A stretch of 64,000 nucleotides of DNA, taken from the NCBI GenBank assembly GCA_029856145.1, contig JAHQWK010000001.1, positions 320,001-384,000 on the forward strand, written 5' to 3'. Under the pieces are notes generated by a model. The model was not told the DNA's origin and searched no databases. It worked only from the letters and a program-made list of their open reading frames with translations. Shown here one piece after another: positions 8,777 to 38,823 of the stretch. Both the position numbers and the translations under genes were made by a program. The stretch's first letter is position 1; each line of letters begins with the position of its first letter. This DNA comes from Promethearchaeia archaeon (GTDB taxonomy: Archaea; Asgardarchaeota; Lokiarchaeia; Sigyniarchaeales; SOKP01).

Positions 8777-10033
8777 ATGCAAAAAGTCGCAATAATAGGA
8801 ATAGGAATAACCCCCTTTAGGGCAAGATATCTTGATAAAACTTATTTTGAATTAGCCTTTGATGCTACAAAATTAGCATTAGAAGATGCTAATAAAAATG
8901 GGGCAGAGATCACACATAAAGATCTCCAATCAACAGTTTATGGAATTTATAATGAACTTTTTGAACGTCAATTTATGCCAGATATTTTTACTAATTCATA
9001 TCTAGGTATGAATAATAAGCCAGGAACCAGAGTTGCCACAGGTGGTGCTACAGGCGGATATACAGTTCGAATGGCATTTGCGGAGGTCGCGTCAGGGTTA
9101 TCAGATTTATGCCTTTGTATAGGTCTTGAAAAATGTAATGATTGTTATGATGAACAGACGGGAACTACCACTCCAGAGGTTCTAAATGCCATTGCTTATT
9201 CGGCGGATATGACTTATGAGTATCCAATGGGGATGATGGCTGCAAGTTCTTATGTATCAATGGTAAATGCACATTATGAAGAATTTGGAAACCCAACTGA
9301 GGAACAAATGGCTTACGTAAGCGTTAAAAACCATGGAAATGCTATTAATAATCCAAAAGCACAATCTCCAATGAAATTAACTGTTGAGGATGTTATGAAT
9401 TCAAGAATAATATGCTATCCATTCAAAATGTTAGATTGCTGTTTATATTCAGAAGCATCTGCAGCGTTAATTCTAGCAAGTGAGGAAAAAGTAAAAGAAT
9501 TAAAGATTGAAAAGCCAATTTGGATTACTGGCGTAGCAGCAGCAAATACAGATTGCTTCATAGGAAATAGAGAAGATATGGGACGCTTATACTCAAATAT
9601 TTATGCGGCAAAAGCAGCTTATAAGATGGCAGGATTAGATTATAATAAAATAAAAAGTCAAATAGATTTAGCGGAATTACACGATGCTTTTAGTGGACAG
9701 GAAGTTATTAGTTATGAAGAACTTGGATTTGTTCCATTTGGAGAAGGGGGTCCTTGGATTGAAAAATCTTTTGAAAAACAAGGAGAAGGCCCATGGATAG
9801 AAGGGGAATTGCCATGTTGTCCTTCCGGAGGGTTAATAGGTTGTGGACATGCCGTTGGTGCAACGGGAATTATGAGTACGGGAGAAGCTGCTCTTCAATT
9901 AAGAGGAGAAGCAGGAAAACATCAAGTCACAATAGAAAAGGGGCGAGCAATTTCGCATTCTATAGGAGGACCTGGAGCAGCATATGCTGCTGTTATTGTA
10001 ATGGCAAATAAGGAGGGTTTGATGAAATCATGA
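8777..10033 (+). CDS. SCP2-type thiolase-fold protein lacking the nucleophilic Cys (putative aldolase)
   Basis: KNH.NA..NPKAQ, ELHDAF, PSGGLIGCGHAVGATG, HSIGG; VATGGATGG in place of VExACASGG. Confidence 0.88.
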   Translation: MQKVAIIGIGITPFRARYLDKTYFELAFDATKLALEDANKNGAEITHKDLQSTVYGIYNELFERQFMPDIFTNSYLGMNNKPGTRVATGGATGGYTVRMAFAEVASGLSDLCLCIGLEKCNDCYDEQTGTTTPEVLNAIAYSADMTYEYPMGMMAASSYVSMVNAHYEEFGNPTEEQMAYVSVKNHGNAINNPKAQSPMKLTVEDVMNSRIICYPFKMLDCCLYSEASAALILASEEKVKELKIEKPIWITGVAAANTDCFIGNREDMGRLYSNIYAAKAAYKMAGLDYNKIKSQIDLAELHDAFSGQEVISYEELGFVPFGEGGPWIEKSFEKQGEGPWIEGELPCCPSGGLIGCGHAVGATGIMSTGEAALQLRGEAGKHQVTIEKGRAISHSIGGPGAAYAAVIVMANKEGLMKS

Positions 10034-10524
10034 GTAAAGAATTTCAAGATCATCAAATAAGAGATGTAATAAGGATTAACTACAAATACACAATGGGAGG
10101 ACATTCAAAATTTTTTATTGAATTAATGAATAACAAGAAGTTATTAGGTACAAAATGCAATAAATGTGGAAAGACTTGGATGCCTCCTAGGATAAATTGC
10201 TCTGATTGCTATGCACCAGCAGATTGGGTTGAGCTTAAACAAACTGGAACAATAGAGGTCAGCACAATAGTGTGGTATACCACTTCCGCTTTTATTAAAG
10301 CAATACCTTATGGAATTGGGTTTATAAAACTTGATGGCGCGGAAACAGCTTTACTTCAAGGTATTTTCTCTGAGAATTTAGTTCCTTCAAAAATAAAAAA
10401 GGGGAAAAAAGTAAAAGCGGTCTTTAACAAGAAGAGAGAGGGTAAAATGACTGACTTTTTCTTTGTTCCCGAGGACGAGTATGAAAATTGGATATCAAAA
10501 CCAGAATATGAAGGAGGAGAATAA
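10030..10524 (+). CDS. DUF35/ChsH2-type Zn-ribbon + OB-fold protein
   Basis: LLGTKCNKCG...PPRINCSDC, OB-fold; ATGA overlap with the thiolase stop. Confidence 0.9.
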   Translation: MSKEFQDHQIRDVIRINYKYTMGGHSKFFIELMNNKKLLGTKCNKCGKTWMPPRINCSDCYAPADWVELKQTGTIEVSTIVWYTTSAFIKAIPYGIGFIKLDGAETALLQGIFSENLVPSKIKKGKKVKAVFNKKREGKMTDFFFVPEDEYENWISKPEYEGGE

Positions 10525-10526
10525 TA

Positions 10527-10898
10527 ATGGGACAAGCAAAAGAAAGTTTAAGAAAGATAGTAAAGAAATTAAACACGATTCCAAAAGCTCAAGCAGTATT
10601 TATCACAAACATCGCTGGAAAAGATGTTGATTGGGAGATGTCCTTTCAGTTTAACCTTGATAATGAAGATCTATTCTTTTTAGAAATCAAGAATCGTAAA
10701 GCTATTATATCTGAAGGTACTAAATCGGGTGCAATCATCGTGATGTCGGGAAATTCTGATGTAATCGTGAAGATTTGTGAAGGAAAAGGAGATTTTACTC
10801 ATGCAATCTCACGAGAGCAAATAACCGTGGAAAAAGGAAAAGTAATGGATGTCATACGTCTTACGAGAGCAATAACAATTGTTTTAAAAAATAAATAA
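10527..10898 (+). CDS. SCP2 sterol-carrier domain protein
   Basis: 123 aa with FQFNL..FFLEIKN..AIISEG...AISREQITVEKG SCP2 pattern; 2 nt after the DUF35 gene. Confidence 0.7.
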   Translation: MGQAKESLRKIVKKLNTIPKAQAVFITNIAGKDVDWEMSFQFNLDNEDLFFLEIKNRKAIISEGTKSGAIIVMSGNSDVIVKICEGKGDFTHAISREQITVEKGKVMDVIRLTRAITIVLKNK

Positions 10899-10919
10899 TT
10901 ATTTTTCTATTATTTTTTC

Positions 10920-11051
10920 AGTATCATAGGATACGGAGTTAATAAAGTGAAATATTTGAAATACGGAGAACAAAAACAGCTTGGTACAGCAAATTTAGAT
11001 GAAATTGAAATAATAGGAAACTCAAATGATGAAGTTTTTCCTAAATTTTGA
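10920..11051 (+). pseudogene. Start-less C-terminal fragment resembling a DUF362 (Fe-S protein) C-terminus
   Basis: SIIGYGVNKVKYLKYGEQKQLGTANLDEIEIIGNSNDEVFPKF*; no start codon after the upstream TAA (10896-10898). Confidence 0.5.
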
Positions 11052-11148
11052 TTTTTCCTATTCATTTTTCTTATCCTTTTTTTGTCAAACTTTTTTATTT
11101 TTATGAAACATTATAGAGATTTAATAACTGATAAAATCTTGATTAATC

Positions 11149-12207
11149 TTGAGAATTGTTGATTTACGTTCTGATACCGTAACCAAGCCATCTCCAGAAA
11201 TGTGGGAAACACTAAGATCATTAGAAAACTCTGATCTTGGAGATGATGTTGAAGGAGAAGATCCAACAGTAAATAAGTTGGAAGAAAAAGCAGCTAAATT
11301 GATTGGAAAAGAAGCAGCGTTGTTTGTGACTTCTGGAACACAAGGTAATTTAGTTTCACTCCTCTCACTAACTAATCCTGGTGATGAGATTCTTTTAGAA
11401 GAATTAAGTCATATCTACAAAAACGAAGTAGGGAGTGCGGCTCGGATTGGAGGATTAATGATTAGAACTTATCCCTCAATAAAAGGTGTTCCTTTATTTG
11501 ATCAGCTCCAAACATTAATTCGTGATAAAGAGGATATACATGAACCACCAACGACTCTTTTTTCTGTAGAAAATACTCATAATTATCATGGAGGTGTGAT
11601 TGTTCAACCAGAAGTACTTAAGGACATGAGGGATTTTTCAGAAAAGAATAGTTTAAAATTACATTTGGACGGCGCAAGGATATTCAACGCAGCAGTAGGT
11701 TTAGGAGTTCCTGTTACAGAATTTACTAAACATGTTGATAGTGTTATGTTTTGCTTATCCAAAGGTTTATCATGTCCAGTCGGTTCAATTGTTGCGGGTT
11801 CAAAAGAATTTATTAAAAGTGCCAGGAGATACCGAAAAATGCTTGGTGGAGGTATGCGCCAAGCAGCAATAATTGCTTCTTTTGGTTTAATTGCGCTTGA
11901 ACCAAAATGGATTAAAAGACTTGAGGAGGATCATAAAAATGCTAAGTTACTTGCTGAAGGGATTGAATCTTACGATTTGCCCATAAATATAGATAAACCA
12001 GAAACTAACATTGTAATTGTTAAACTTTTGCAAAAAACCCGTATAGTTAAAATATTAAATCAACTTGGAAAAGAAGGCATATTATCATTCAATATTAGTA
12101 AAGAAAAAATAAGATTTGTAACACACTACGGAATAAATGAAGATGACATTCAGTTTTCTGTTCAAAAAATAGGCAATACTCTAAGTAAATTTTTAATTTA
12201 TAAATGA
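11149..12207 (+). CDS. ltaE: Low-specificity L-threonine aldolase (PLP)
   Basis: DLRSDTVT, GDDV.GEDPTV, SGTQGN, ENTHN, HLDGARIFNA, CLSKGL, GGGMRQ. Confidence 0.93.
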   Translation: MRIVDLRSDTVTKPSPEMWETLRSLENSDLGDDVEGEDPTVNKLEEKAAKLIGKEAALFVTSGTQGNLVSLLSLTNPGDEILLEELSHIYKNEVGSAARIGGLMIRTYPSIKGVPLFDQLQTLIRDKEDIHEPPTTLFSVENTHNYHGGVIVQPEVLKDMRDFSEKNSLKLHLDGARIFNAAVGLGVPVTEFTKHVDSVMFCLSKGLSCPVGSIVAGSKEFIKSARRYRKMLGGGMRQAAIIASFGLIALEPKWIKRLEEDHKNAKLLAEGIESYDLPINIDKPETNIVIVKLLQKTRIVKILNQLGKEGILSFNISKEKIRFVTHYGINEDDIQFSVQKIGNTLSKFLIYK

Positions 12208-12273
12208 AATATAACCAGAAAATAGCTTAAATATATTCTTTTAATTAGAGGAATAAAAAAATAAAAAAAATTA

Positions 12274-12804
12274 TTAATCCTTACGTAATTCTAAATCTTT
12301 TGAGTCATCTTCAATTGCATCGTAGTATTCAAGATCCATTAATCCACCCTGTACATCTTCTGCCCAATGAACTTTTATAGGCATACCTATGTAAGTATCC
12401 CTAAATTCGATATCAGGATCTAACTGTGCAGGATATGATGTGTCTGCTCCATCTAATTGTACACAAACTATAGGTCGTTCTAAAACTTCGCCAGTTTCAG
12501 GATCTTTTAAATAAGTAACAGTATATGAAACTACTTTCCCAGTTTCACGTAAATCCACCCACCTATCAGGTTTAACGAGACATTTACCGCATATAAGTCT
12601 AGGTGGAAAAAATATTCTATTACAACTTGAACATTGGAGTCCTACCAGCTTTTTCTGCTTTAATTTTTCTAAAAAGGGTTTCATATGAGTAATATTAAAT
12701 TTGAATTTATAACTGGACAAATACCAATTTGTTGGCATAGTTCTTGTTCTGATATATTCTTTTTTAATATATTCCATAGATTTTCTTAATGTTCTTTTAG
12801 ACAT
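12274..12804 (-). CDS. DUF35 Zn-ribbon + OB-fold protein
   Basis: CSSCNRIFFPPRLICGKC, GKVVSYT, IGMPIKVHW. Confidence 0.9.
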   Translation of the reverse strand: MSKRTLRKSMEYIKKEYIRTRTMPTNWYLSSYKFKFNITHMKPFLEKLKQKKLVGLQCSSCNRIFFPPRLICGKCLVKPDRWVDLRETGKVVSYTVTYLKDPETGEVLERPIVCVQLDGADTSYPAQLDPDIEFRDTYIGMPIKVHWAEDVQGGLMDLEYYDAIEDDSKDLELRKD

Positions 12805-12823
12805 ATTATATTACCTCAATATT

Positions 12824-14071
12824 TTATTTAAGTTTTCTAGCTGGTTCATCAGCCATAACCATCATGGTTATCAAATTAACATATCCTCCCCAACCATGTC
12901 CCAATGCTGTGTGTACAGTCTTAGGAACTTGATTACTAGCCTTTCCCATAATCTGTAAAGCTGCAACAGCAGGTCTTTCCATTGCTGATGCTCCTATAGC
13001 ATTTGTGGAATTAACCCCTCCTGAACAATTAATAGGTAATTCACCATTTAAGGCAGTTATTCCAGTTTTATACATTTCTGGTGATGTGTTTTCTTCGAAT
13101 AAACCCAATTTTTCCACCCACATAAGTTCTTGGTTAGGAAATGGTGAATATACCTCAGCATAATCTACTTCTTTCCTTGGAAAAGAAATACCCGCTTGTT
13201 TAAACGCCAAATCAGAAGTTATTTGCGCGCCAAGTTGCTCAGAAAGATCTAACTGCGCTGAACCACTACCATCGTAACCAATTAGTGCAGTTTCATTTGC
13301 TATGCTACCTACTCCGTTAACATATACAGGAATATCACATATATCTTTTGCCTTTTCCTCAGTTGTAAATAACATTGCACATGCTCCATCAGACGCGGGG
13401 CACACCATTCCATATCTTAGTGGATATGAAATGTAAGGTGTATCTAAAACATCTTCAATAGTAAGATCAGGCATCTTAAGGTGAGCCCACCATGTTTTTG
13501 CTGCATTATGCCTATTCTGGACGACAACTCTAGCTAAATCTTCTTCTGTAATTTTACTTTTTCGCATATAATTAACCGCTTGATAAGACGCAATTCCTAT
13601 TGCAGCACCACCAGATAAAAGGAGTGTTAATTGATCATAAGGGATTCCTAATGAATTCATCACAGAAATTTCTCCATATGCTACACTGGCAAGTCCTACA
13701 CTTGTATCACCTTGGCTTTGCTGTTCAAAAGCTATAGCTAGAACAGTATCTACCTCTGGTAAACCTGCAGCTACAGAATAATAACCTGATATAGCCACAG
13801 AACCACCAGTTGTACCTCCTGTAGTAACTCTCATTAAGGGTTTATTTCTAGCACCCATCCAATCTGTCATCCATAATTCTGGGATATTTGAGCCTTCAAA
13901 TGCAGGCATATTCCCGTTTACAAAAGCATCAATATCTTTAATTTCAAGACTAGGAACTCTTTTCAAACAATCTTCTATTGCTTCACTTACTAATTCAGGC
14001 ATATTTACATCAGAGCGCTTTGAAGCATGCTCACTAAAACCAGCACTTGCAATACATACTTGTCTTCCCAT
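12824..14071 (-). CDS. Ltp3-like thiolase-fold protein (putative retro-aldolase catalytic subunit)
   Basis: GARNKPLMRVTTGGTTGGS (no Cys), CPASDGACA, AEVYSPF...MWVEKLG, STNAIGAS, HGWGG; these match the Ltp3 pattern as I recall it. Confidence 0.85.
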   Translation of the reverse strand: MGRQVCIASAGFSEHASKRSDVNMPELVSEAIEDCLKRVPSLEIKDIDAFVNGNMPAFEGSNIPELWMTDWMGARNKPLMRVTTGGTTGGSVAISGYYSVAAGLPEVDTVLAIAFEQQSQGDTSVGLASVAYGEISVMNSLGIPYDQLTLLLSGGAAIGIASYQAVNYMRKSKITEEDLARVVVQNRHNAAKTWWAHLKMPDLTIEDVLDTPYISYPLRYGMVCPASDGACAMLFTTEEKAKDICDIPVYVNGVGSIANETALIGYDGSGSAQLDLSEQLGAQITSDLAFKQAGISFPRKEVDYAEVYSPFPNQELMWVEKLGLFEENTSPEMYKTGITALNGELPINCSGGVNSTNAIGASAMERPAVAALQIMGKASNQVPKTVHTALGHGWGGYVNLITMMVMADEPARKLK

Positions 14072-14073
14072 TT

Positions 14074-15216
14074 TTAATTACCTCCTTCTAATACATAGAG
14101 AATATTGTTTTGTGCACACATACCTATTTGCCCCGAGGCAATAGCTTTTTTAACATCCTTAACTTGATGACCTTTTGCCTCTCCTCTAATTTGCTTTGCA
14201 GCTTCAATAATCCTAATTAAACCGGTAGCGCAAGGAGGATTCCCGCCAAGAGCACCTCCAGAAGGATTGATAGGGAGATCACCGCCGATTACAGAATTTA
14301 AGCTTGCTCCTTGACCTCTCTCTGTAAATCCTAAAGCTTCTGTAAAAATTAATTCTTCATGCGCGTACCCTTCAAAAATCTCCGCCACATCGATTTCATG
14401 TTTAGGATCTTTGACTCCAGCAGCATTAAATGCCATTTTCCCAGCTAATTCCATAGATTTACTCGCTGATAAATCTCGATCTCCAAGATAATATGTTTCT
14501 TGATTATATCCTACTCCAGTAATCCAAACTGGATTATCTGTTATTTTCAATGCCTGTTTTTCTGGAGCTAATAATAAAGCTGCTACACCATCACAAGGTT
14601 GAGCTACCATTAATTCTGTAACTGGATCAGCATAAATCTCAGAATTTAAGACATCTTGAACTGATAAATTTGGATTTTGAGCTTCTGCTAAAGTTAATGC
14701 ATTTTTTGCGGCATTTTTTCTATTTTTAACAGTAACATGAGCAATATCTTCAGCACTCACTTTAAATTTTTCCATATATGCTCTCATCTGGAAACCTGCC
14801 GAAGTAACATCATTCACATACGCAACTGGTCGCTCCCAGGTAGGATCTGTCTCGTACAACCGAGCAGAATGGTACGGAAAACATGATGCCATACTTCCTC
14901 CCCATACCACAGCTAATTTATGATTACCAGATAAAATTCGCATTAATCCATATAAAACAGCATGAGCTCCATCCATTTCTACTTTTGATTCGTCTGCTAA
15001 GTATCCCCCTCCGACTTCTACAGTTAAAGCATTTGAAATCGTACGTCCATCATAATAATCATTTGTAGCTGAAATGACTGTAGTTATATCTTTCTTTTTT
15101 AACCCTGCATGATCTAAAGCACTACGCACGGCTTCATAAATCATTTCATAACGACCATAATCTGCATCTGAATAAAGCTTTACTTGATTATATCCTACAA
15201 TACCTAATCTCTGCAT
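14074..15216 (-). CDS. Ltp4-like thiolase-fold protein (putative partner subunit)
   Basis: DYYDGRTIS and ESKVEMDGAHA (Ltp4-type VEMD), INPSGGAL. Start reassigned to the ATG at 15216 (MQRLGIVG, GAGGTGG RBS) to remove the overlap with the upstream DUF35 gene. Confidence 0.85.
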   Translation of the reverse strand: MQRLGIVGYNQVKLYSDADYGRYEMIYEAVRSALDHAGLKKKDITTVISATNDYYDGRTISNALTVEVGGGYLADESKVEMDGAHAVLYGLMRILSGNHKLAVVWGGSMASCFPYHSARLYETDPTWERPVAYVNDVTSAGFQMRAYMEKFKVSAEDIAHVTVKNRKNAAKNALTLAEAQNPNLSVQDVLNSEIYADPVTELMVAQPCDGVAALLLAPEKQALKITDNPVWITGVGYNQETYYLGDRDLSASKSMELAGKMAFNAAGVKDPKHEIDVAEIFEGYAHEELIFTEALGFTERGQGASLNSVIGGDLPINPSGGALGGNPPCATGLIRIIEAAKQIRGEAKGHQVKDVKKAIASGQIGMCAQNNILYVLEGGN

Positions 15217-15230
15217 ACTTTGAGCCCACC

Positions 15231-15695
15231 TCACACTCTTATGAATCCCTTTATATCTGAAGGGTCTCCCTTTGTTTTCTCTTCCCATTGGACTTTAACT
15301 TTCATACCTATCTTCACTTTTTCAGGTTCAATATCTAATAAACGGTAAACTATTGCTGTATTGCTTCCATCAATTTGTACCATACCAATAATTTGTGGTT
15401 TTTTCACTTTTCGGCTAGCTCTATCATTTATTTTATAATAAGTTATTGTATAATTTTTCAGAACTCCTGCATCTGGTAAATCTACCCAGTTTTGGTCTAA
15501 AGGAATCGTTTTATTACATTTTCCACATATTTTCCTTGGTGGAACAAAGACATCTCCGCATTTAGGGCATTTATTTCCAATAATTTTCTTATTTTCAAGA
15601 GCATCATAGAATTTATCCATATATTGACCAACCCAAAATGCAAATTCTGCTCTTACAAGCCCCTTATTAGCAACAACTATTTTCTCTTCACTCAT
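15231..15695 (-). CDS. DUF35 Zn-ribbon + OB-fold protein
   Basis: GNKCPKCG..FVPPRKICGKC, KIGMKVKVQW. Confidence 0.9.
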   Translation of the reverse strand: MSEEKIVVANKGLVRAEFAFWVGQYMDKFYDALENKKIIGNKCPKCGDVFVPPRKICGKCNKTIPLDQNWVDLPDAGVLKNYTITYYKINDRASRKVKKPQIIGMVQIDGSNTAIVYRLLDIEPEKVKIGMKVKVQWEEKTKGDPSDIKGFIRV

Positions 15696-15934: not shown

Positions 15935-17224
15935 TTGATTGAATTGGTTAATAAAAAAGGTCAAGTGCAATGTATTAATGATGAGATACTTGAAAAACTT
16001 TCTTTAAAAAATCGGTATAAGTTCTTGAATTACAACTTAATGTCTTATTTACCGAAAGAACAATTAGATTTTCTTAAGAAAGCTCAGAAGTTTTTCATAG
16101 GGTTTGAAAAAAATAATAATATCACCCATAACGAAGATTTTTATGAGTGGATTCCCGAGATTGGTAAAGAAGGTATGGTCACTCGGTTAAATAAATTCGA
16201 ATTTCTTGATTTAAATTATGAACCATATGGATTAACAACTGAATTTATGAGAACATTAGCTTCTGATTTTTTTGATCCCCAATTTACAATGGGAATGGGA
16301 GCTAACATTTTAGCAATTAATCCACTGTTGGCACATCATGAGGATATTGAGATTCGTCTCAAAGTATTGAAAGAATTAGTTACTGGGCAAAAAAATGGGT
16401 GTATATGTATCACAGAACCCGAAAGAGGGTCTGATGCAGTTCATATGTTAACCACTTGTGAGGAACAAGAGGATGGAAGCTTTATTCTTAACGGGGAGAA
16501 AATCTACCAAACAAATGGACCTAAAGCAGATTGGGCAATAATTTATGCTGTTAGTGAAAAAAATACTGGTAACACAATGGCTCAATTCTTGGTTAACACA
16601 TCTTGGGACGGCTGGGAAGTAGAGAGGATCAATATTCCTTGGACTCCAAGAATTTTCATAGGTAAAGAAACTTTTACAAATTTAAAAATCCCTCCAGATT
16701 ATGTTATAGGTAAACCAGGAAAAGGGAGAGAGTATTTATTTGAAGGACTAAATTTAGAACGATTAGGAATTGTGCTTCTTAACGCAGCAGAAGCTTGGAA
16801 TGCAATATCTCATGCTGTTATTTATGCTAATATGAGAAAGCAATTTGATCAAGAAATTTTAAAATATCAAGGTGTTGGATTTCCTTTATCAGATTTATGG
16901 GCTGAAACTATGAACCTTACATTATCAACTTTAAATGTATGCCAAATGGTTGATAAAAAAATAGAACAGTTTGGAACCCTCCCTAAACAATTTAGTCTAG
17001 CTTTAATGGCTACAGCATCCCAATTAAAGTCTATAAGTGCCAAATTGAGTGAAAGAACAGCTTATGAATGTGCTAATCTGATGGGTGGTGCAGGGGTCTG
17101 TGATAATACATTAATGCAAGATTTATTAGGGATAACTAGAATACAAGAAATAGGAGGCGGTACAAGACAAATTCAGCAATATATTATGAGTTTAACTTTA
17201 AGACAATTATTTAAATTGCTCTAA
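15935..17224 (+). CDS. Acyl-CoA dehydrogenase (IVD/LCAD-type catalytic Glu position)
   Basis: CITEPERGSD, LNGEKIYQTNG, LNLERL, RKQF, GGAG, EIGGGT. Confidence 0.9.
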   Translation: MIELVNKKGQVQCINDEILEKLSLKNRYKFLNYNLMSYLPKEQLDFLKKAQKFFIGFEKNNNITHNEDFYEWIPEIGKEGMVTRLNKFEFLDLNYEPYGLTTEFMRTLASDFFDPQFTMGMGANILAINPLLAHHEDIEIRLKVLKELVTGQKNGCICITEPERGSDAVHMLTTCEEQEDGSFILNGEKIYQTNGPKADWAIIYAVSEKNTGNTMAQFLVNTSWDGWEVERINIPWTPRIFIGKETFTNLKIPPDYVIGKPGKGREYLFEGLNLERLGIVLLNAAEAWNAISHAVIYANMRKQFDQEILKYQGVGFPLSDLWAETMNLTLSTLNVCQMVDKKIEQFGTLPKQFSLALMATASQLKSISAKLSERTAYECANLMGGAGVCDNTLMQDLLGITRIQEIGGGTRQIQQYIMSLTLRQLFKLL

Positions 17225-21814: not shown

Positions 21815-21816
21815 AA

Positions 21817-23028: not shown

Positions 23029-23107
23029 TTCCTTTTTAACAAATTATATATTTAGAAATATAATTTGAATAAAATAAATTTAAATTGTAAAAAATAAAGT
23101 GAAAAAA

Positions 23108-31489: not shown

Positions 31490-31719
31490 ATTTTATTTCC
31501 TCATTTATTTTAAAAATATCATATGAGAATTTAAACAAGCAAAAAATATTTTCTCTATTATATAAATTTTATAATATTTATCGAATTTCATTTAGGATTT
31601 ATTCAACGCTACTGAATAAATTTCAATGTGAATATGTAACATATTAATATGAAAAAAATCTAATTTCCATAGTAATCTAAATTTAAAACTCATAAAACAA
31701 ATTTTATAATGTGATAAAA

Positions 31720-32613
31720 ATGTCAGAAGAAGATTTATCAAACAAATTGGTTATAAGTGCTGCTCTTACTGGAGCTGTAACTAATAGAGCTCAGAATCCG
31801 AATGTCCCATTTACAGCAGAAGAATTCGGGGATGAAGCAAAAAAATGTTATGAAGCTGGAGCAGCAATAGTCCATATACATGCAAGAGATCCCGAAAAAG
31901 GCAATCCTACACACGAACTAGATATAATTGGAGCCATAATTGACAATATAAAAGAAAAAGCTCCAGGTCTACTAATTAATCTTAGTACTGCAATAAGCAC
32001 AATCGTCACCCCTAAACAAAGAATTGCGCCGATTGAAACATTTAAGCCACCAATAGCTTCATTAAATTCTAATTCAATGAATTTCGCAGTAGGAGATCAT
32101 AAAACTGGGCGGGTTGGACTAGGTGCGAAAACTATATTTGCAAATACGTTTGATACTATTCAAAAATTTGCCAAATCAATGAAAAAAGCGGGAACTAAAC
32201 CAGAAATAGAAGTTTACGATTTTGGTGGAATGTATAACATTTTACACTTAGCAAAACAACAACCCAAAGTACTTCTTGATCCTCCACTCCATTTTCAATT
32301 TGTGTTTGGTGTATTGGGAGGAGTACCATTTTCTTATGAAAATCTAGCGCATTTTATAAACCTAAAACCTCCAGATGCTAGTTGGAGTGTTTGTGGTGTA
32401 TCTAAAAATCAATTTCAAGCAGCAATGTGTGCAGCAGCTATGGATGGTCATATAAGGGTAGGATTAGAAGATAATATTCGCATGCCTGATGGTAGCTTAG
32501 CTAAAGGAAGTTGGGAACAAGTAGAATGGGCTGCAAAGGTTACTCATATCGTAAATCGCGAAGTTGCTACTCCTGATGAAGCTAGAAAGATCTTTAATCT
32601 ATACCAACGGTAA
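31720..32613 (+). CDS. Beta-keto acid cleavage enzyme (BKACE/Kce family, DUF849)
   Basis: AALTGA, NP.VP.T.EE, AGAAIVHIHARD, KPEIE, HIRVGLEDN, ATPDEAR; ATG at 31720 preferred. Confidence 0.9.
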   Translation: MSEEDLSNKLVISAALTGAVTNRAQNPNVPFTAEEFGDEAKKCYEAGAAIVHIHARDPEKGNPTHELDIIGAIIDNIKEKAPGLLINLSTAISTIVTPKQRIAPIETFKPPIASLNSNSMNFAVGDHKTGRVGLGAKTIFANTFDTIQKFAKSMKKAGTKPEIEVYDFGGMYNILHLAKQQPKVLLDPPLHFQFVFGVLGGVPFSYENLAHFINLKPPDASWSVCGVSKNQFQAAMCAAAMDGHIRVGLEDNIRMPDGSLAKGSWEQVEWAAKVTHIVNREVATPDEARKIFNLYQR

Positions 32614-32689: not shown

Positions 32690-33826
32690 TTGAATTATAT
32701 AATTGTTGGAAAATATGAAAGGTGGATTTATATCAAACCTAATTTTATTCCAGGATTAAAATTATCTGAACTTTTTTATAATGATGTTATAAAAGAAAAA
32801 CTTGAAAAGGAATATCCTGAGTTAGAATATGCCGCTGCTTTAATAGGTCAAGGTTCTGAAATTCTTGGTTTTGACGATAAGATGTCTACAGATCATCACT
32901 GGGGTCCAAGATTACAACTTTTTTTGAAAGAAGATGATTATGACAAATATAATTTAATAATTAAGAAATATTTCAGCAAAATTTTACCTTTTACCTTTCT
33001 TGGATATTCTACAAACTGGAGCGAACCAAATGAGAAGGATGGAATGAATCAATTTTTGGAACTAAAAACAAATGGTCCAATTAATCATAGAATTGAAATT
33101 TATACTGTTGAACGTTTTTTAAAACTCACTCTTGGCCTTGAATCTCTAGAGCTTAATGAAAGTGATTGGTTTACTATTCCGGAACAGCGGCTATTAGAAT
33201 TTACATCAGGTAAAGTATTTTATGATAATTTTGGAGAATTAACACATGTTAGAAAACATATAAACTATTATCCTGATTCTATTTGGAAATTAAAGATTAT
33301 CGTACAATGGGATCGTATTTCTCAAGAAATGTCATTTGTTGGAAGGATTGGTGGGAAAGGAGATGATCTAGGATCCAGAATAGAAGCATCTCGTTTAGTG
33401 AGATACATTATGGAGATGGCTTTCATTCTTGAAAAGAAATATATTCCATATGAGAAGTGGTTTGCTATAGCTTTCAAACAATTATCTATATCCAAAACTT
33501 TAAACCCTCTATTATTAGGCATACTAAAAGAAAATAATTGGCAACAACGAGAGAAACTCCTTCTTGATGCTTATTTACAACTAATTAAAATGCATATAGA
33601 ATTAAGCCTAATTCCTAATATTAAAATAGAACCCATGCAATTCCATAATCGCCCCCAATTAGTAATTCCTCTTCAAAATGTTATTGAAGAATTAAAGAGG
33701 GGAATTAATTATTCTTTTAGCCAAGTATCATACTCCCTCGGAACCATTAACCAGTTCATTAATATTTGTAATAATTTAAACCCTAAACTTTGCAGAAGAG
33801 CACAACTATTCTATGAAGAGATTTAA
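32690..33826 (+). CDS. DUF4037-like protein (nucleotidyltransferase-like N-terminus)
   Basis: AALIG.GSEILGFDD.MSTDHHWGPR, PEQRLL..T.G.VF.D, YIPYEKW; start uncertain. Confidence 0.75.
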   Translation: MNYIIVGKYERWIYIKPNFIPGLKLSELFYNDVIKEKLEKEYPELEYAAALIGQGSEILGFDDKMSTDHHWGPRLQLFLKEDDYDKYNLIIKKYFSKILPFTFLGYSTNWSEPNEKDGMNQFLELKTNGPINHRIEIYTVERFLKLTLGLESLELNESDWFTIPEQRLLEFTSGKVFYDNFGELTHVRKHINYYPDSIWKLKIIVQWDRISQEMSFVGRIGGKGDDLGSRIEASRLVRYIMEMAFILEKKYIPYEKWFAIAFKQLSISKTLNPLLLGILKENNWQQREKLLLDAYLQLIKMHIELSLIPNIKIEPMQFHNRPQLVIPLQNVIEELKRGINYSFSQVSYSLGTINQFINICNNLNPKLCRRAQLFYEEI

Positions 33827-33854: not shown

Positions 33855-34334
33855 TTATACTTCTTCCCAATAAAGGATGTCTTTAATTGTTCCTTCTCGT
33901 TTATCATGTGGACGTAAGATTGCTTTAAGTTTTTTACCTGTAAAATCATTATCGAGATTATTAGTATTGATAATCCCTAACATCGAATCATCTGTTCCTT
34001 CGATATTTATGAAAGCAACAACTTTGGGTTTTGCTAAGTTTTTACCATGGGCATTTAATTTAGCTACGGTGAATACTTTTACTGTACCTACAGTTGGTAC
34101 TTCTTTCCAATTACTATCAGGTATCTCTACAAAACAGTCTTCGCAATACATACGAGGAGGACAATAAATTTTACTACATTTTGCACATTTACATGCTAAA
34201 AAGGTATCATTTATCTTAAGATGCTTGAAAAATTTATCACCTGCTATTCCACTTGGATAAAAATAATCTGCTTGCATATCTCCGCGCCAATGCATGGGAG
34301 TGGTTGGATCTGTTTGTTTCTCTAAGAAGCCCAT
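33855..34334 (-). CDS. DUF35 Zn-ribbon + OB-fold protein
   Basis: CAKCSKIYCPPRMYCEDC, REGTIKDI. Confidence 0.9.
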   Translation of the reverse strand: MGFLEKQTDPTTPMHWRGDMQADYFYPSGIAGDKFFKHLKINDTFLACKCAKCSKIYCPPRMYCEDCFVEIPDSNWKEVPTVGTVKVFTVAKLNAHGKNLAKPKVVAFINIEGTDDSMLGIINTNNLDNDFTGKKLKAILRPHDKREGTIKDILYWEEV

Positions 34335-34873
34335 TAATCTCCACCTCCAGTTAATGGTTTAAAATATTTAATATCTGTAATTGAGCCTTCTCTTTCATTC
34401 TCTGGTTTCCACACGGCTTTAACTTTCATTCCAATCTTAATTTCATCCTTAGTCATCTCTGAGAAATAATGCATGAATCCATGATGTGGAGGCGTACCAT
34501 CGAGATCAACTACACCAACTAGAATTGGCTCTTCGATTCTCCTAGCATCAGGATCGAGATATGAAATTGAAAATGTTTCAATAACTCCTGTATCTGGTAA
34601 CTCAATCCATTCTTCAGTGGGACCATAACAATATTCGCAAAACATTCTTGGAGGTACAATGACTCGCTTACATCGTTTACAATGTATCCCATAAATTTTG
34701 CCTTCTTTTAAGCCTTCTAAGAATTTGCTCATCGCAGGACCTAAAGACCAACTGTATTGAACCTCTGGTTCCCACCAAGTATATGTAATCTTTTTATCTC
34801 TTATATCACTTTCACGAACATGAGTACCTGGAGCATATGGTGGCCATTCTTTATAATCTTTCTTTTTTACCAT
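34334..34873 (-). CDS. DUF35 Zn-ribbon + OB-fold protein
   Basis: CKRCKRVIVPPRMFCEYC, GVIETFS, IGMKVKAVW, REGSITDI; ATG at 34873 with GGTGA RBS; 1-nt overlap with the next gene. Confidence 0.9.
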   Translation of the reverse strand: MVKKKDYKEWPPYAPGTHVRESDIRDKKITYTWWEPEVQYSWSLGPAMSKFLEGLKEGKIYGIHCKRCKRVIVPPRMFCEYCYGPTEEWIELPDTGVIETFSISYLDPDARRIEEPILVGVVDLDGTPPHHGFMHYFSEMTKDEIKIGMKVKAVWKPENEREGSITDIKYFKPLTGGGD

Positions 34874-34894
34874 TTTTTTTATCACCTTTTTAAT

Positions 34895-36058
34895 TTAACC
34901 CCTCCGAAGGAGTATAACTGTGCCCATTTGCATGATATCACCCCAAGCTTGTGCGACACCGATTCTTGGGTCTCCTGGAATTTGTCTTTTACCAGCTACA
35001 CCTTTTAGTTGCCAATATAATTCACATACTTTTTGACCCATTGTGGCAGCGATCGGGTTCCCTACACCCAGCAGACCACCAGAAGGACAGACTGGAAAAT
35101 CACCATCTCGTTGTGTAACTCCTTCTCGTGTAAGAATAGGGGCTTCACCTTTTTTGCACAGTAAAAGTCCTTCAAGATGATGCAATTCCTTATATGAGAA
35201 TGGGTCATAAGGTTCAGCAAAGTCTATTTCTTTTCGTGGGTTTTCAATTTTAGCCATTTTATAAGCCATCTTAGCTGCTTGTGCTACATAACGAGGAAAA
35301 GCTAGGTCTCTATTAGTCCACATTGTACTATCTATGTTCCATCCTGTACCTGCTACATAAATTGGATCATCTGTAAATTTATGTACAATATCTTTATTAC
35401 AGAATATCAATGCTGCTGCTCCATCACTAGGTGGACTGATATCTAATCTGTTCACTGGCCAAGCCATTATCTCAGAGTTTAAAACATCTTCAACAGTGAT
35501 GCTAGGATCTGCTAATTGGGCAGAGGGATGACCAACAGCATTTCTTTTATTTTTTACTGAAACTAAAGCAATATCTTCCTTCTTAATGTTATAAGTGGTC
35601 ATGTAGCGGTTCATTTCCATTGCAAATAACCATACTAGATTAGGTGTAAGGGGTCTATCCAAGATTGGATCCCATATATGTCTAAAAGCTGTTTGTGGAT
35701 GAGGGTAACAATTACCCATCTTTTCTTCACATACAACTAAACATATATCGGCGACTCCAGAGGCAACATGCCACCATCCAGCAATAGGAGCAAAGACTCC
35801 TGTACCGCCTCCATTAAAGACTCTTACATATGGTTTGCCTACTGCCGCTGCCCCATCTATAAGATTTTCACCTTTCATATGAATTCCATCAAATGCATCT
35901 GGAGCACTACCCATTACTACCATGTCAATATCATCCTTTTCTAAGCCAGCATCTTCCATTGCCATTTTCGTAGCTAAAAAGGAAAGTTCTTTTCCAGTTT
36001 CTAATAAATGTCTACGAAATAGGGTCATACCGGCTCCTAAAACTGCTACTTCTTTCAT
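34895..36058 (-). CDS. Thiolase-fold protein lacking the nucleophilic Cys, Ltp3-like (YDPF)
   Basis: APDAFDG, KPYVRVFNGGGTG, SDGAAA, EPYDPFSY, GVGNPIAA, QAWG. Confidence 0.87.
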   Translation of the reverse strand: MKEVAVLGAGMTLFRRHLLETGKELSFLATKMAMEDAGLEKDDIDMVVMGSAPDAFDGIHMKGENLIDGAAAVGKPYVRVFNGGGTGVFAPIAGWWHVASGVADICLVVCEEKMGNCYPHPQTAFRHIWDPILDRPLTPNLVWLFAMEMNRYMTTYNIKKEDIALVSVKNKRNAVGHPSAQLADPSITVEDVLNSEIMAWPVNRLDISPPSDGAAALIFCNKDIVHKFTDDPIYVAGTGWNIDSTMWTNRDLAFPRYVAQAAKMAYKMAKIENPRKEIDFAEPYDPFSYKELHHLEGLLLCKKGEAPILTREGVTQRDGDFPVCPSGGLLGVGNPIAATMGQKVCELYWQLKGVAGKRQIPGDPRIGVAQAWGDIMQMGTVILLRRG

Positions 36059-36073: not shown

Positions 36074-37321
36074 TTATCCCCTCCTAAAAATTGCTACTGC
36101 TCCACTTCCTGAAGGAATTCCACGCCAAGCTTGAGCAAGTCCGACTTCTGCATCAGCAACTTGTCTTTTAGCAGCATGGCCACGAAGTTGAGTAACAATT
36201 TCTAGAGCTTTTTGCAATCCAGTAGCTTCAAAACAATTTCCTACACCTAGACATCCTCCAGATGTGTTTGTAGGAAGTGAACCATTAATTTCTAAGGCTC
36301 CTTCTTCAATTAATTGTTTTGCTTCACCAGGTCTAGCAAGACCTAAAGCCTCAAGATGTTGAAGTTCTTTAAATGAAAATCTATCATCAACTTCAACTAC
36401 ATCAATTTCTTCTCGAGGTTCTGTTATTTTAGCCATTTTATATGCCATCTTTGCTGCTTTAGTAGCATAGCCAGCATCCATACCTCTTGTACCCAGCCAA
36501 GGTGTTTCTGAACAGTATCCAAAACCAGCTAAATATATTGGTTCAATACCTAAATTTTCAGCAGTTTTATCATCAGCAAGTACAAAACACACAGCACCAT
36601 CAACATTAGGGCTGATATCCAATCGTTTAACAGGTTTAAAAAGATATTCAGATTTCATTACATCTTCAATTGAAATTTGGGCTTCATAATCTGAATAAGG
36701 ATTGAAGAATGCATTTTTCTTATTTTTCACAACAACAGCAGCGCATTGTTCCTCTGTAGTTCCTGTTGTTTTTAAATAATGTTGCATTTCTAAACCAGCC
36801 ATAAAATACGGATGAATTCTTTCCTTTTCATCAGAACGCCCTATTAATGGTTTAGGAGCTTCTGGAGTATATCCTGGGCTACCTCCATAATTAGGTCTTT
36901 CAACAGGTCCAGAAACCGGTCTTTCAAATCGAGGATCAAATGCGTGAAGCATAATATCACCAAAAGTTAGCAAATCAGAAATCTTACTATGAGCTTCTAC
37001 TGCTACAACATCTAAACGGCCCGTTTTAATTTGCATATAAGCGTTTGCCAATCCGAAGAGTCCATCCCCACATACAGTACAACAAGGACGTAAAAGTGCT
37101 CCAACTTGGTCTGGTACAAATTCATCGAAAATACTGAAACCTTCCCAATAGTCTTCTGCACATGTTATGAAGCTGTTTACATCTTTTCTAACATCAATAC
37201 CAGCATCTACATAAGCTTTTTTACAAGCTTCATACATTATTTCTTTCCAATGTATATCCGGAGTTATCGAATTAAAGTTGGTAAAACCAACACCGATAAC
37301 GCATACTTGTCTATCTGACAT
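36074..37321 (-). CDS. Thiolase-fold partner subunit (degenerate catalytic motifs)
   Basis: EDYWEG.SIFDE, VCGDGLFG, VEAHSK, EVDDRFS, SGG.LGVGN, QAWRG. Confidence 0.87.
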   Translation of the reverse strand: MSDRQVCVIGVGFTNFNSITPDIHWKEIMYEACKKAYVDAGIDVRKDVNSFITCAEDYWEGFSIFDEFVPDQVGALLRPCCTVCGDGLFGLANAYMQIKTGRLDVVAVEAHSKISDLLTFGDIMLHAFDPRFERPVSGPVERPNYGGSPGYTPEAPKPLIGRSDEKERIHPYFMAGLEMQHYLKTTGTTEEQCAAVVVKNKKNAFFNPYSDYEAQISIEDVMKSEYLFKPVKRLDISPNVDGAVCFVLADDKTAENLGIEPIYLAGFGYCSETPWLGTRGMDAGYATKAAKMAYKMAKITEPREEIDVVEVDDRFSFKELQHLEALGLARPGEAKQLIEEGALEINGSLPTNTSGGCLGVGNCFEATGLQKALEIVTQLRGHAAKRQVADAEVGLAQAWRGIPSGSGAVAIFRRG

Positions 37322-37533
37322 TTTTTACCATCATTTTAGGTTTCTTTTTTTTTAATTTGAATTTTTAATATAATTTATTAATAGATCTTGGTTTTAATAT
37401 AGATTTGATATTTTATTGTTATGTTTTATTTTGATTAAAAATTTTCTAATTGAATGAATTAATATGGATGGGAAAAAAATCCTATTTGAGAGAGAAGAAA
37501 ATTTAAAATCATAAGAAAATTGTCTTATTTATT

Positions 37534-38823
37534 ATGGATACAAGACTCCCGGAATTTCCAAAATTAGAAATCAGTCGAATTATTCCTGAATTGGATTTAT
37601 TAAATAACCCAATACTAAATGTAAAAGAAAAGGAATTTTTAGCTGAGTTTTTTGAATATATGGAAGAAAATCTTGAAAAACATTTGAAAAACTTAGAAGA
37701 ATTAAATTATTCGGCTGAGGAACCAATTCAAGAAAAGAAACGTGAAATAGTAGCTAATTTTATGAAAAAACTAGCAGAAAAGGGATACTATAGTACTGTA
37801 ATAGATTTCGAAGACCATGATGTTGGAAATGTTACAAGAAATGCTCTTATAGCATTAGCCTTATGTGGAGGTTTTTGGTCTCCAAACAGTGATAGATATA
37901 TAAATGGGAATTGGAGTATTGAAATGGGTAGATTATCAGGAGGAACACTTTATTGCAATCCAGTGAATTATAAAGCTAATAATTTTCAACGAGAGAAATA
38001 TCTTATCCCTGTCGTAAAATATGGTTTAATGGCTGCCTCTGCTATGACTGAATTCATTGCTGGTAGTGATATTGCTAGAATCGAGTTAAAACTTGATGAT
38101 AAAGGAGATAAAGTAATCGCAAATGGAAAAAAACTTTTTATAACAAATGGCATGTTAGCAGACTATATTATTCTTTATGGGCGATTAAATAGTGGAAGAT
38201 TGGGTGGTATTATAGTAGATACAGACCATCAACAATTGAAAAATTTTGAATCTTCGAGAGTCAGAACTTATGGAATGAATGATGCTTTTGTCAGTCGTTT
38301 AGTATTTAAAGATACTGAACTTCCTAAAGAAAATCTTCTAGAAGGTGATGGTTTAGACATTATGTTTCATCAACTGACTGAAGAGAGATTAGTCATCAGT
38401 GCAGAAGCTATAGGTGATTGCATTAAAAAACTATTCTTTTCCCATAGTTTCGCCCTTCAACGTGAGCAATTTAAGCACAAATTGCATCAATACCAGATTA
38501 TTAGATTTCCAATTGCTGAAAATATGCGTCAAACAAATTTATTCATTTCAGCATTAATAAATTACGCACGGGAGATTGATAGTCGAACACAAATAGCTAG
38601 TTCTAAAATAATGGCTTCTCAGATAATGGGACTAAAAATTCAAACGTGTGAATTGGCATTTCAGAGTTCCATTGATTTATTTAGAACAATGGGAGGACGT
38701 GCTTTCACAGAGCAATATTGCAATGAAATGGGACTTCTTGACGCATTCTGTATGGTTCATGGTGGTGGAAGTCATTATGTGCTAGGAGATGCTGAATCAA
38801 GAAGGTTCTTTAAAACTAAATAA
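37534..38823 (+). CDS. Divergent acyl-CoA dehydrogenase
   Basis: AMTEFIAGSD, NGKKLFITNG, LTEERL, REQF, MGG, VHGGGS. Confidence 0.87.
   Translation: MDTRLPEFPKLEISRIIPELDLLNNPILNVKEKEFLAEFFEYMEENLEKHLKNLEELNYSAEEPIQEKKREIVANFMKKLAEKGYYSTVIDFEDHDVGNVTRNALIALALCGGFWSPNSDRYINGNWSIEMGRLSGGTLYCNPVNYKANNFQREKYLIPVVKYGLMAASAMTEFIAGSDIARIELKLDDKGDKVIANGKKLFITNGMLADYIILYGRLNSGRLGGIIVDTDHQQLKNFESSRVRTYGMNDAFVSRLVFKDTELPKENLLEGDGLDIMFHQLTEERLVISAEAIGDCIKKLFFSHSFALQREQFKHKLHQYQIIRFPIAENMRQTNLFISALINYAREIDSRTQIASSKIMASQIMGLKIQTCELAFQSSIDLFRTMGGRAFTEQYCNEMGLLDAFCMVHGGGSHYVLGDAESRRFFKTK

Follow-up and report, generated by a model that had tools for sequence, protein, structure and literature searches.

In a 64,000-nucleotide stretch of a Lokiarchaeial genome (the window; C9:320001-384000 of a 3.55-Mb assembly in 32 contigs), the region 8777-38823 encodes five thiolase-fold proteins, Thl1-Thl5, and judged by their catalytic residues none of them is a conventional thiolase. 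Two pairs, Thl2/Thl3 and Thl4/Thl5, each together with two DUF35 proteins, are best described as putative Ltp3/Ltp4-type heteromers. Between the two heteromer operons lies a variable block of ~16 kb that includes an aldehyde:ferredoxin oxidoreductase (AOR), and the cluster as a whole is an arrangement conserved in part of one genus, laid on an older, far more widespread island. Our best reading, to which we give an even chance, is that the heteromers are aldolase-type lyases for branch points or bulky chains, tied in this one genus to a dedicated pathway for isoprenoid-like alcohols or acids. We do not read them as a general replacement for beta-oxidation.

Loss of the thiolase catalytic residues

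The canonical SCP2/archaeal thiolase set consists of a nucleophile Cys, the His and Cys of an HDCF motif and the His of a GH motif. Residues were read from MAFFT alignments (the window proteins with three other paralogs of the genome, and with actinobacterial relatives) and from alignments to thiolases in the PDB, and the full set is found in none of Thl1-Thl5. The nucleophile column holds Gly in Thl1, Thl2 and Thl4 and Glu in Thl3, and the counterparts of HDCF read HDAF in Thl1, YSPF in Thl2, FEGY in Thl3, YDPF in Thl4 and DDRF in Thl5. Only Thl1 keeps the His of GH; Thl2-Thl5 have Asn at this position. That is, Thl2-Thl5 have neither catalytic His, and Thl1 (8777..10033, forward strand; an SCP2-type thiolase fold by Pfam, PDB alignment, MAFFT and tree) has both, in HDAF and CGH, and neither Cys.

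In Thl5, a Cys lies a few residues from the nucleophile column, depending on the placement of a 3-residue gap. It is replaced by Ser in an 84%-identical ortholog and by Pro or Ala in relatives. An earlier note on this stretch, made from the DNA alone, had stated that all five thiolase-fold genes lack the canonical acylating-Cys motif, and the alignments bear this out, as the nearby Cys of Thl5 is not conserved. The possibility that Thl5 is the sole true thiolase of the region was rejected, because of these replacements and because both catalytic His are absent. Databases label such proteins as 'acetyl-CoA C-acetyltransferase'.

In Thl2 (12824..14071, reverse strand), an Ltp3-type subunit and by alignment and tree the candidate catalytic subunit, the key positions are held by Gly86, Tyr308 and Asn357. 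All three are invariant across 31 aligned Ltp3-type family members (30-93% identity), and the Thl2 motifs TTGGTTGG and AEVY(S/A)PF do not vary among 80 orthologs; the EMDGA core of Thl3 is invariant too. Because of this invariance, the Thl2 family appears to keep an active site under selection.

A sixth non-canonical thiolase paralog is encoded elsewhere in the genome (C12:26024-27256). It has Pro at the nucleophile position, keeps HDAF and GH, and groups with Ser/Asp/Pro variants in a tree built without PDB chains; no open reading frame (ORF) of at least 100 aa fit to be a DUF35 gene adjoins it. In the alignment of Thl2 with PDB chains, Ser takes the nucleophile position in ST0096 (4yzo), a thiolase-like protein of Sulfolobus tokodaii.

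Relationship to the Ltp3/Ltp4 family

The best matches of Thl2 in a tblastn search of plasmid records are actinobacterial three-gene operons, at 36-38% identity over 98-99% of its length. These operons encode an 'OB-fold' protein of 309-339 aa and two thiolase-domain proteins of 354-359 aa and 388-390 aa, the larger of which is the one matched by Thl2. The OB-fold protein is a tandem DUF35, and both of its halves match DUF35 proteins of the window, e.g. DUF35b. The neighbours of the Tsukamurella operon are a crotonase, an AMP-ligase, an NMO, an F420 oxidoreductase, a P450 and a steroid 3-ketoacyl-CoA thiolase, an arrangement that is presumably the fadD19-echA19-Rv3521-ltp4-ltp3 layout of the M. 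tuberculosis cholesterol region. In the alignments, Thl2 and the Ltp3-like proteins have in common the Gly at the nucleophile position, AE(V/I)Y(S/V)PF and SGGVxSxN(A/P)IGAS, and Thl3 shares VEMD(G/A)A with the Ltp4-like proteins.

A FastTree phylogeny of 118 thiolase-family members, with local SH-like supports only, places Thl2 in an Ltp3-type clade (support 92), mostly of the Gly/Tyr/Asn type, and Thl3 and Thl5 in an Ltp4-type clade without the Tyr (support 89); the joint Ltp3/Ltp4 clade has support 94. Thl4 belongs to a small clade of the Gly/Tyr/Asn type, and the thiolases with Cys/His/His branch off at the base. A thiolase-superfamily phylogeny had been proposed in the earlier note as a check; in the present tree Thl2 goes with the Ltp3-like and Thl3 and Thl5 go with the Ltp4-like proteins, and Thl1 stands in a separate Gly/His/His clade.

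Thl2 reaches 349 bits against the NCBIfam model PRK08313 (cut-off 514) and Thl3 reaches 192 bits against PRK07937, 'lipid-transfer protein' (cut-off 419). As both scores are under the cut-offs, Thl2 and Thl3 are distant relatives of the actinobacterial Ltp3 and Ltp4 and not equivalogs. Thl4 (34895..36058, reverse strand; YDPF, GNP), by alignments and tree a subunit of the Gly/Tyr/Asn type, passes the archaeal NCBIfam model PRK06065 with 662 bits vs a cut-off of 455, and Thl5 (36074..37321, reverse strand; DDRF, GNC), which alignments and tree point to as a degenerate partner of the Ltp4 type, resembles PRK06066.

On the gene maps, two adjacent thiolase-fold genes and their DUF35 partners share one operon in both cases. 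The first operon, on the reverse strand, consists of DUF35c (15231..15695), Thl3 (14074..15216), Thl2 and DUF35b (12274..12804). Thl3 is the Ltp4-type partner subunit, with a VEMDG motif, as judged by alignment, tree and a predicted heterodimer with Thl2. Its ORF extends to 15288 and gives 404 aa from the first start codon, and its orthologs are called at 380 aa; the start likely lies at 15216, which would abolish the overlap with DUF35c. In the second operon, also on the reverse strand, DUF35d (33855..34334) and DUF35e (34334..34885) stand beside Thl4 and Thl5. DUF35d has a zinc ribbon by Pfam and full-length homology to the other DUF35 proteins, its OB half being detected solely via homology to the other four; DUF35e was assigned by Pfam and by homology to the DUF35s. 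The partner of Thl1 is DUF35a (10030..10524, forward strand), with zinc ribbon and OB fold. All five DUF35 genes of the region were found by Pfam and carry CxxC...CxxC.

Compared with the actinobacterial Ltp3-Ltp4 system (Rv3523, Rv3522, Rv3521 type), the window operons share the paired thiolase-fold genes and the DUF35 docking domains, and the Ltp3-type subunit has Gly, Tyr and Asn in place of Cys, His and His. An AMP-ligase, a crotonase and an NMO, as at the Tsukamurella locus, are also among the window neighbours. However, the window has two separate DUF35 genes that flank or precede each pair, while Actinobacteria have one fused tandem protein. The host differs too: it is an anaerobic archaeon, genes for breaking down sterol rings are not in view, and the Lokiarchaeial operon mostly stands alone. 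Sterol side chains branched at C24 reportedly require ltp3 and ltp4, which are described as aldol-lyases (Wilbrink 2012, cited in PMC6593523).

Ltp3-type loci are also found outside these groups. One in Dehalococcoidia has a MaoC hydratase, three acyl-CoA dehydrogenases (ACADs), a CoA-transferase, an SCP2 protein and an iron-type alcohol dehydrogenase (Fe-ADH) nearby, and another has a MaoC protein, an ACAD, a ligase and a beta-keto acid cleavage enzyme (BKACE). These independent loci give some support to an aldolytic pathway logic beyond the genus of the window.

Conservation and distribution of the core operon

Synteny was compared in one genome per species, at 80 loci with Thl2 orthologs of 79-97% identity, all Asgard-labelled except for one record titled as a bacterium. 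This record (DATKTW010000129.1; L077) holds an 82%-identical Thl2 ortholog and is filed under 'Candidatus Nanopelagicaceae bacterium', probably through a binning or labelling error in a metagenome-assembled genome. Of the 80 loci, 77-80 have the four-gene core DUF35c-Thl3-Thl2-DUF35b (DUF35b in 77, DUF35c in 78); all other genes vary.

Three layouts can be distinguished. About half of the loci have the core flanked by SepF on one side and by amylase, nitroreductase or PAP2 genes on the other, and show no metabolic partner for it. In roughly a quarter (~25/80), it belongs to an island with the order RNaseH-like, ACAD2, Thl pair, BKACE, (SDR), core, Beta_elim_lyase, polar amino-acid ABC transporter, p123, DUF35a, Thl1, in which ligase, crotonase and AOR are absent. 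The third layout, seen in 13 of the 80 loci and also that of the window, is this island with the ~16-kb block, from ACAD1 to ligase 2, between DUF35c and BKACE. Within the islands, the trio Thl1-DUF35a-p123 recurs in 10-16 loci and the ACAD2-RNaseH flank is conserved. The most frequent metabolic neighbour of the core is Beta_elim_lyase, which directly adjoins DUF35b in 24 loci; BKACE is near the core in 14.

Two further genes were seen near the core. A gene pair for the 2-hydroxyglutaryl-CoA-dehydratase D-component (HGD-D) lies at most 10 kb away in 20 of the 80 species (e.g. L041:3657-4694, L069:5205-6467), and in seven species an adh_short gene (295 aa; e.g. L100:2083-2970) lies between BKACE and DUF35c-Thl3-Thl2-DUF35b. 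The product of the latter may be a hydroxyacyl-CoA dehydrogenase of the SDR type that acts alongside the aldolase-like complex.

Of 151 genomes of the class, 97 gave a Thl2 ortholog, among them 94 of 127 in the family and 36 of 51 in the genus; of the five further families sampled, four gave none. A core housekeeping function, as the 79-97% identity might suggest, was rejected, since orthologs were not found in 15 of the 51 genus genomes nor in those four families; some of these absences coincide with contig ends. An exact-protein look-up of Thl4 found no record.

The AOR block and other genes of the region

The Pfam scan covered 59 of the 62 listed window frames of at least 90 aa, and the three remaining frames are short and overlapped by longer scanned ones. 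It found within 8777-38823 two ACADs, two crotonases, two AMP-forming ligases and one each of FadH-like protein, Fe-ADH and AOR. For the ligases, ACADs, crotonases, FadH, the five DUF35 proteins, ADH and AOR, the inventory of the earlier note is therefore the same as that of Pfam. Of the two SCP2 carriers it listed, however, only one is a clear match (23099-23509); the second candidate (10527-10898) is sub-threshold, at E 0.008 and 17 bits vs a cut-off of 21.3 bits. Beyond that inventory, Pfam added a Beta_elim_lyase, a CrtI-family flavoprotein, an FNR-like reductase, BKACE and a DUF4037 protein.

The block begins with ACAD1 (15935..17224), which adjoins the core in 13 of the 80 loci. Assigned by Pfam and on the forward strand unless stated, it continues with AMP-forming acyl-CoA ligase 1 (17473..19182), crotonase 1 (ECH_1; 19300..20115), a flavoprotein of the CrtI or carotenoid-isomerase family (20261..21814; below the curated cut-offs in NCBIfam), an FNR-like reductase with a 2Fe-2S domain (21808..23013), an SCP2 lipid-carrier-like protein (23099..23509), Fe-ADH (23626..24825; also NCBIfam), the AOR-family protein (24863..26710), crotonase 2 (26737..27561, reverse strand), an OYE + Pyr_redox_2 flavoprotein of the FadH or enoate-reductase type (27795..29807) and, by Pfam and synteny its last gene, AMP-forming acyl-CoA ligase 2 (29939..31489, reverse strand).

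Outside the block, BKACE (31711..32613, forward strand) belongs to the older island, as it adjoins the core in block-free genomes, and is followed by the DUF4037 protein (32690..33826, forward strand). On the other side of the core, the 123-aa, weakly SCP2-like p123 (10527..10898) follows DUF35a, and the Beta_elim_lyase (11149..12207), a pyridoxal-phosphate enzyme resembling threonine aldolase, precedes DUF35b; both were seen by Pfam, p123 below the cut-off, and lie on the forward strand. ACAD2 (37534..38823, forward strand) closes the region. Among PDB entries it matches 1egc best, which we take to be the E376G/T255E double mutant of human MCAD; in the alignment, ACAD2 has Glu at 255 and Gly at 376. 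The catalytic base of ACAD2 is thus of the IVD/LCAD type, typical of enzymes for branched or bulky substrates. A third AMP-forming ligase (2584-4383, Pfam) and an NMO gene (4477-5499) lie upstream in the window.

As the ADH and AOR genes are more than 9.5 kb from Thl2, loci of +/-10 kb around Thl2 cannot reach them, and the link to the block was tested by an AOR-centred metagenome scan and by genome-wide positions. AOR orthologs of at least 73% identity occur only in the genus of the window, in 19 genomes. On metagenome contigs, close AOR orthologs (74-89%) keep the order Thl3-DUF35c-ACAD-ligase-ECH-CrtI-FNR-SCP2-ADH-AOR-ECH-FadH-(extra Thl pair)-ligase-BKACE, and more distant AORs keep only ADH as a neighbour. 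Seven genomes of the genus, the window's own included, have AOR and Thl2 on one contig at a distance of 10.7-12 kb. In three genomes without a found Thl2, the block stops at a contig edge on the Thl2 side, and two of them also show the block abutting BKACE, thiolase gene(s) and ACAD2. The contigs found by an exact-protein look-up of AOR all belong to the one species and share its gene order, which is uninformative on conservation.

The restriction to one genus suggests that the block was gained there. The earlier note had taken the whole region as one thiolase-independent system of retro-aldol cleavage and AOR. Co-location holds within one genus, where ligase, ACAD, hydratase, aldolase-type and aldehyde-oxidising genes are encoded together and in conserved arrangement; however, the region is not one conserved unit. 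The synteny comparison that the note had called for gives the same split picture, a four-gene core in nearly every locus but close AOR orthologs in a single genus.

Two metagenome relatives (L116:14994-18300, L118:15856-19200) have an extra DUF35-DUF35-Thl-Thl set past the FadH-like gene, 37-39% identical to Thl2/Thl3, which would be a third Ltp3/4-type pair in the block. An AOR paralog of 64-66% identity has one in-frame TAA in seven genomes of the family (e.g. G038:C154:9969-11807, G070:C68:12040-13878, G009:C7:26535-28370); as it recurs, it is more likely to reflect a split gene, read-through or an assembly feature common to these genomes than random decay. None of the sequencing runs listed for this DNA is recorded as RNA. 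Four marine-sediment runs of one study with a metatranscriptomic label, flagged 'probably DNA' (7-13% of words), gave short contigs of ~110-660 nt on 10000-29999, scattered over Thl2, Thl3, ACAD1, ligase 1, CrtI, ADH, AOR, ECH2 and FadH; these were not used as evidence on expression. Elsewhere in the window, a Gtr1/RagA-family GTPase (59316-60281), a eukaryote-like signature protein, adjoins the tetrahydromethanopterin genes FTR and MTD (57320-59248). The window's proteins have close homologs in metagenome-assembled genomes labelled Promethearchaeota or Lokiarchaeia, which agrees with the Asgard assignment.

Thiolases and 3-hydroxyacyl-CoA dehydrogenases of the genome

The earlier note had found no 3-hydroxyacyl-CoA dehydrogenase (HAD) in the window, and this agrees with Pfam, by which there is no 3HCDH or SDR protein among the 59 scanned frames. 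An organism free of HADs and thiolases is, however, contradicted by the rest of the genome. It has four 3HCDH genes, all outside the window, the nearest of which (C9:392528-393760) lies 8.5 kb past the window end; the other three are found beside a crotonase, beside a second BKACE and near an aminotransferase. The nearest one (410 aa) directly follows a homolog of the presenilin-family proteases, the two genes spanning C9:391441-393760. Two full Cys/His thiolases, with nucleophile Cys, HDCF and GH, are encoded on contigs C19 and C30, one followed by a DUF35 gene and the other following an HMGCS-like DUF35 fusion. Thus, 'thiolase-independent' is true of the cluster and not of the cell, and Lokiarchaeia have routinely been described with a complete beta-oxidation pathway (e.g. 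PMC8027215).

Comparison with Ltp2 and Sal

The DUF35-docked aldolases with a described mechanism are Ltp2, in which Tyr294 of a YDHF motif is the base and Tyr344 the acid, and Sal, in which Tyr302 of YDCY is the base and Cys304 the acid, with Gly at the position of the thiolase nucleophile Cys (PMC12329534). Tyr344 of Ltp2 lies 50 residues past Tyr294, and in the genome's own thiolase the two His of HDCF and GH are the same distance apart. Thl2 (G86, Y308 of YSPF) and Thl4 (Gly, YDPF) have the Gly and the Tyr base of this Ltp2/Sal signature. In Proteobacteria, the hydratase Shy, the aldolase Sal and the aldehyde dehydrogenase Sad remove one acetyl-CoA aldolytically, after which the aldehyde is oxidised and re-ligated (PMC8399759). 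The genes of the window follow the same logic, from ligase, ACAD and hydratase through a putative aldolase to an aldehyde-oxidising enzyme and a second ligase.

The window proteins resemble Ltp2-ChsH2(DUF35) and Shy-Sal-Sad (Pseudomonas, Comamonas) in being DUF35-docked thiolase-fold proteins with this Gly and Tyr. They differ in quaternary arrangement, as Sal and Ltp2 are homodimers with DUF35 fused to a MaoC hydratase (ChsH2, Shy), whereas the window has heteromers, free-standing DUF35s and crotonase-type hydratases. Sad is also an NAD-dependent aldehyde dehydrogenase, while the window enzyme is a ferredoxin-linked AOR, analogous and not homologous. With the DUF35-using SCP2-type thiolases, their top structural and PDB sequence matches, the window proteins have fold, dimer interface and DUF35 use in common; those thiolases, however, have the Cys nucleophile, HDCF and GH His, and the genome's copies of that kind are the ones on C19 and C30.

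The model of Thl2 has a mean predicted local confidence (pLDDT) of 86. In a fold search, its best matches are DUF35-using SCP2-type thiolases, with Ltp2 at rank 24 and Sal at rank 49, behind true thiolases; the search does not separate aldolases from thiolases, and PhlABC, MucABC and SLPs are among the neighbours. The predicted Thl2-Thl3 complex has a score of 0.94 vs 0.00 for the best of three controls, a mark that is reached by 58 of 80 solved complexes and by 2 of 110 mismatched pairs. Between runs, at least 90% of the contacts are the same, and the partner has a pLDDT of at least 91. The predicted interface is the usual thiolase dimer interface, with Thl3 residues 79-81 contacting Arg81 of Thl2, and the pass may stem from likeness to solved thiolase dimers.

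Proposed function and alternative explanations

We suggest that the region is a composite island, in which a block has been added to an older core of three DUF35-docked Cys-less SCP2-thiolase-fold systems. Two of these, DUF35c-Thl3-Thl2-DUF35b and DUF35d-DUF35e-Thl4-Thl5, would be alpha/beta heteromers, with Thl2 and Thl4 presenting the Gly at the nucleophile position and an invariant Tyr at the HDCF His position, and with Thl3 and Thl5 as degenerate partners that would complete a thiolase-type dimer. The heteromers would be retro-aldol C-C lyases that split a 3-hydroxyacyl-CoA into acetyl- or propionyl-CoA and an aldehyde or ketone, and would be used where a dehydrogenase and a thiolase cannot act, i.e. 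at tertiary or branched beta-carbons or on bulky chains.

In the genus with the block, a hydrophobic, probably isoprenoid-like alcohol would be converted to the aldehyde by ADH and to the acid by AOR. The acid would become an acyl-CoA (ligase), an enoyl-CoA (ACAD) and a 3-hydroxyacyl-CoA (crotonase) before the aldolase cleavage; should the carbonyl product be an aldehyde, it would be passed on by AOR and the second ligase to a second dedicated round. The CrtI-family enzyme with its own reductase, the SCP2 protein, the FadH-like protein and the IVD/LCAD-type base of ACAD2 fit a hydrophobic branched, probably isoprenoid-like substrate. Likewise, two copies per step (ligases, ACADs, crotonases and heteromers) fit one or two dedicated rounds and not general shortening. 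AOR may oxidise the product aldehyde, as the earlier note had it, but the ADH-AOR neighbourhood fits an alcohol-to-acid entry equally well, and the pair could serve as this entry, as the outlet for the aldehyde product, or both.

Several points weigh against the proposed aldolase pathway. At the level of the proteins, Asn357 of Thl2 stands at the position of Ltp2 Tyr344 and the GH His, and Pro stands at the position of Sal Cys304. Because both general acids are absent, the mechanism of Ltp2 and Sal is not simply transferable; the likeness to DUF35-linked aldolases drawn in the earlier note thus stands for two of the three systems, as Ltp3/Ltp4-type with Gly and Tyr, but does not extend to the general acids. 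In sequence and fold, Thl2 is no nearer to Ltp2 or Sal than it is to true thiolases, and in the literature we found no in vitro assay of any Ltp3/Ltp4-type complex, the aldolase label coming from genetics. The missing general acids, the fold neighbours and the different signature of Thl1, with both His and no Cys, could instead be taken to mean that the Cys-less proteins are non-catalytic scaffolds or have another thiolase-fold chemistry (decarboxylation or acyl transfer, as for PhlABC and the trypanosomatid SLP). We hold this to be highly improbable: an identity of 79-97% over 80 species and the invariant G86, Y308 and N357 argue for a selected active site, and the Cys of PhlC is absent in the window proteins. 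The direction of flux is a further point, as adjacent AOR and ADH genes are the classical acid-to-alcohol electron-sink pair of anaerobes such as Pyrococcus and acetogens. AOR would then reduce acids and ADH make alcohols, or the complexes would add acetyl-CoA to aldehydes and elongate chains without a Claisen thiolase, an aldol addition being thermodynamically easier, as we infer, than thiolase condensation; enoyl reductase-like genes are present as well (FadH-like, and the NMO). However, AMP-forming ligases and ACADs are typical of catabolism, no marker of a biosynthetic product is found in the cluster, and the known relatives Ltp2, Sal and Ltp3/4 are all catabolic, and we consider such a reverse direction very unlikely.

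The gene neighbourhoods weigh more heavily on the substrate. Most species have none of the ACAD, hydratase, ligase and AOR genes close to the core operon, whose commonest neighbours are either unrelated (SepF, nitroreductase, amylase, PAP2) or of amino-acid type (Beta_elim_lyase, BKACE, polar amino-acid ABC transporter). As lipid genes are rare among them, the native substrate of the core may be a small amino-acid-derived acyl-CoA and not a lipid. The main rival to our proposal follows this line: the Cys-less complexes would serve acyl-CoAs from amino-acid fermentation, together with Beta_elim_lyase, BKACE, ACAD2 and the ABC transporter, and the block would be an independent alcohol, acid or lipid module placed beside them. 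It is favoured by the ~25 of 80 species whose island lacks ligase, crotonase and AOR, and by the frequencies of Beta_elim_lyase (24), HGD-D (20) and BKACE (14), compared with only 13 for the block. However, the block, where found, always lies between two aldolase operons, it supplies the ligase, ACAD and hydratase steps that an aldolase needs and that are otherwise missing from the island, and Ltp3-type loci unrelated to this one, such as that of Dehalococcoidia, also have ACAD, hydratase, SCP2 and Fe-ADH genes. We regard this explanation as possible, if on the unlikely side. At the opposite end is the general cycle of the earlier note, an iterative chain shortening independent of thiolase and HAD, in which AOR oxidises the aldehyde with reduction of ferredoxin and the acid is re-ligated for each C2 or C3 unit. 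All required enzyme types are indeed in one cluster that contains no HAD or Cys-thiolase, a third ligase lies upstream of the two in the cluster, block and aldolase operons are found together in the genus, and Shy/Sal/Sad is a precedent for one round. Nevertheless, each turn would take one AMP-forming ligation and yield one acetyl-CoA, and thiolysis would spare that ATP; the same objection, that aldolysis wastes this ATP, is made in a review of bile-acid degradation (PMC8399759). This cost speaks against an iterative cycle in an anaerobe that is limited in energy and has four 3HCDH-type HADs, of which one is beside a crotonase, as well as two full thiolases with DUF35 partners. The aldolase operon is also mostly without AOR, ACAD or ligase, and the two copies per step point to two dedicated rounds. 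We therefore think a general cycle improbable.

Novelty and implications

The enzyme family and this type of aldolytic pathway are already known in bacteria. Literature searches on DUF35, thiolase and aldolase in archaea or Asgard found no description of such a system, in line with what the earlier note had said of Asgard archaea; not described in the literature searched are its Asgard occurrence, the four-gene form with split DUF35 and the link to a ferredoxin-dependent AOR. A stronger version of our proposal, which we rate as unlikely, is that Ltp3/Ltp4-type aldolases and the ferredoxin-linked AOR together provide an O2-independent, thiolase-free removal of C2 or C3 units from methyl-branched isoprenoid or sterol-like chains that yields reduced ferredoxin, the anaerobic equivalent in archaea of the way in which bacteria degrade the side chains of sterols and bile acids.

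At the level of annotation, at least five genes labelled as thiolases in this genome cannot be thiolases. For biochemical study, the archaeal operon offers a compact, soluble-looking four-gene version of the Mycobacterium Ltp3/Ltp4 system. If the heteromers are aldolases, Asgard archaea would own a widespread and strongly conserved C-C lyase, and one genus would couple it to an AOR-based module that might degrade branched lipids without oxygen. This would bear on carbon turnover in anoxic sediments and on the lipids processed by the closest archaeal relatives of eukaryotes.

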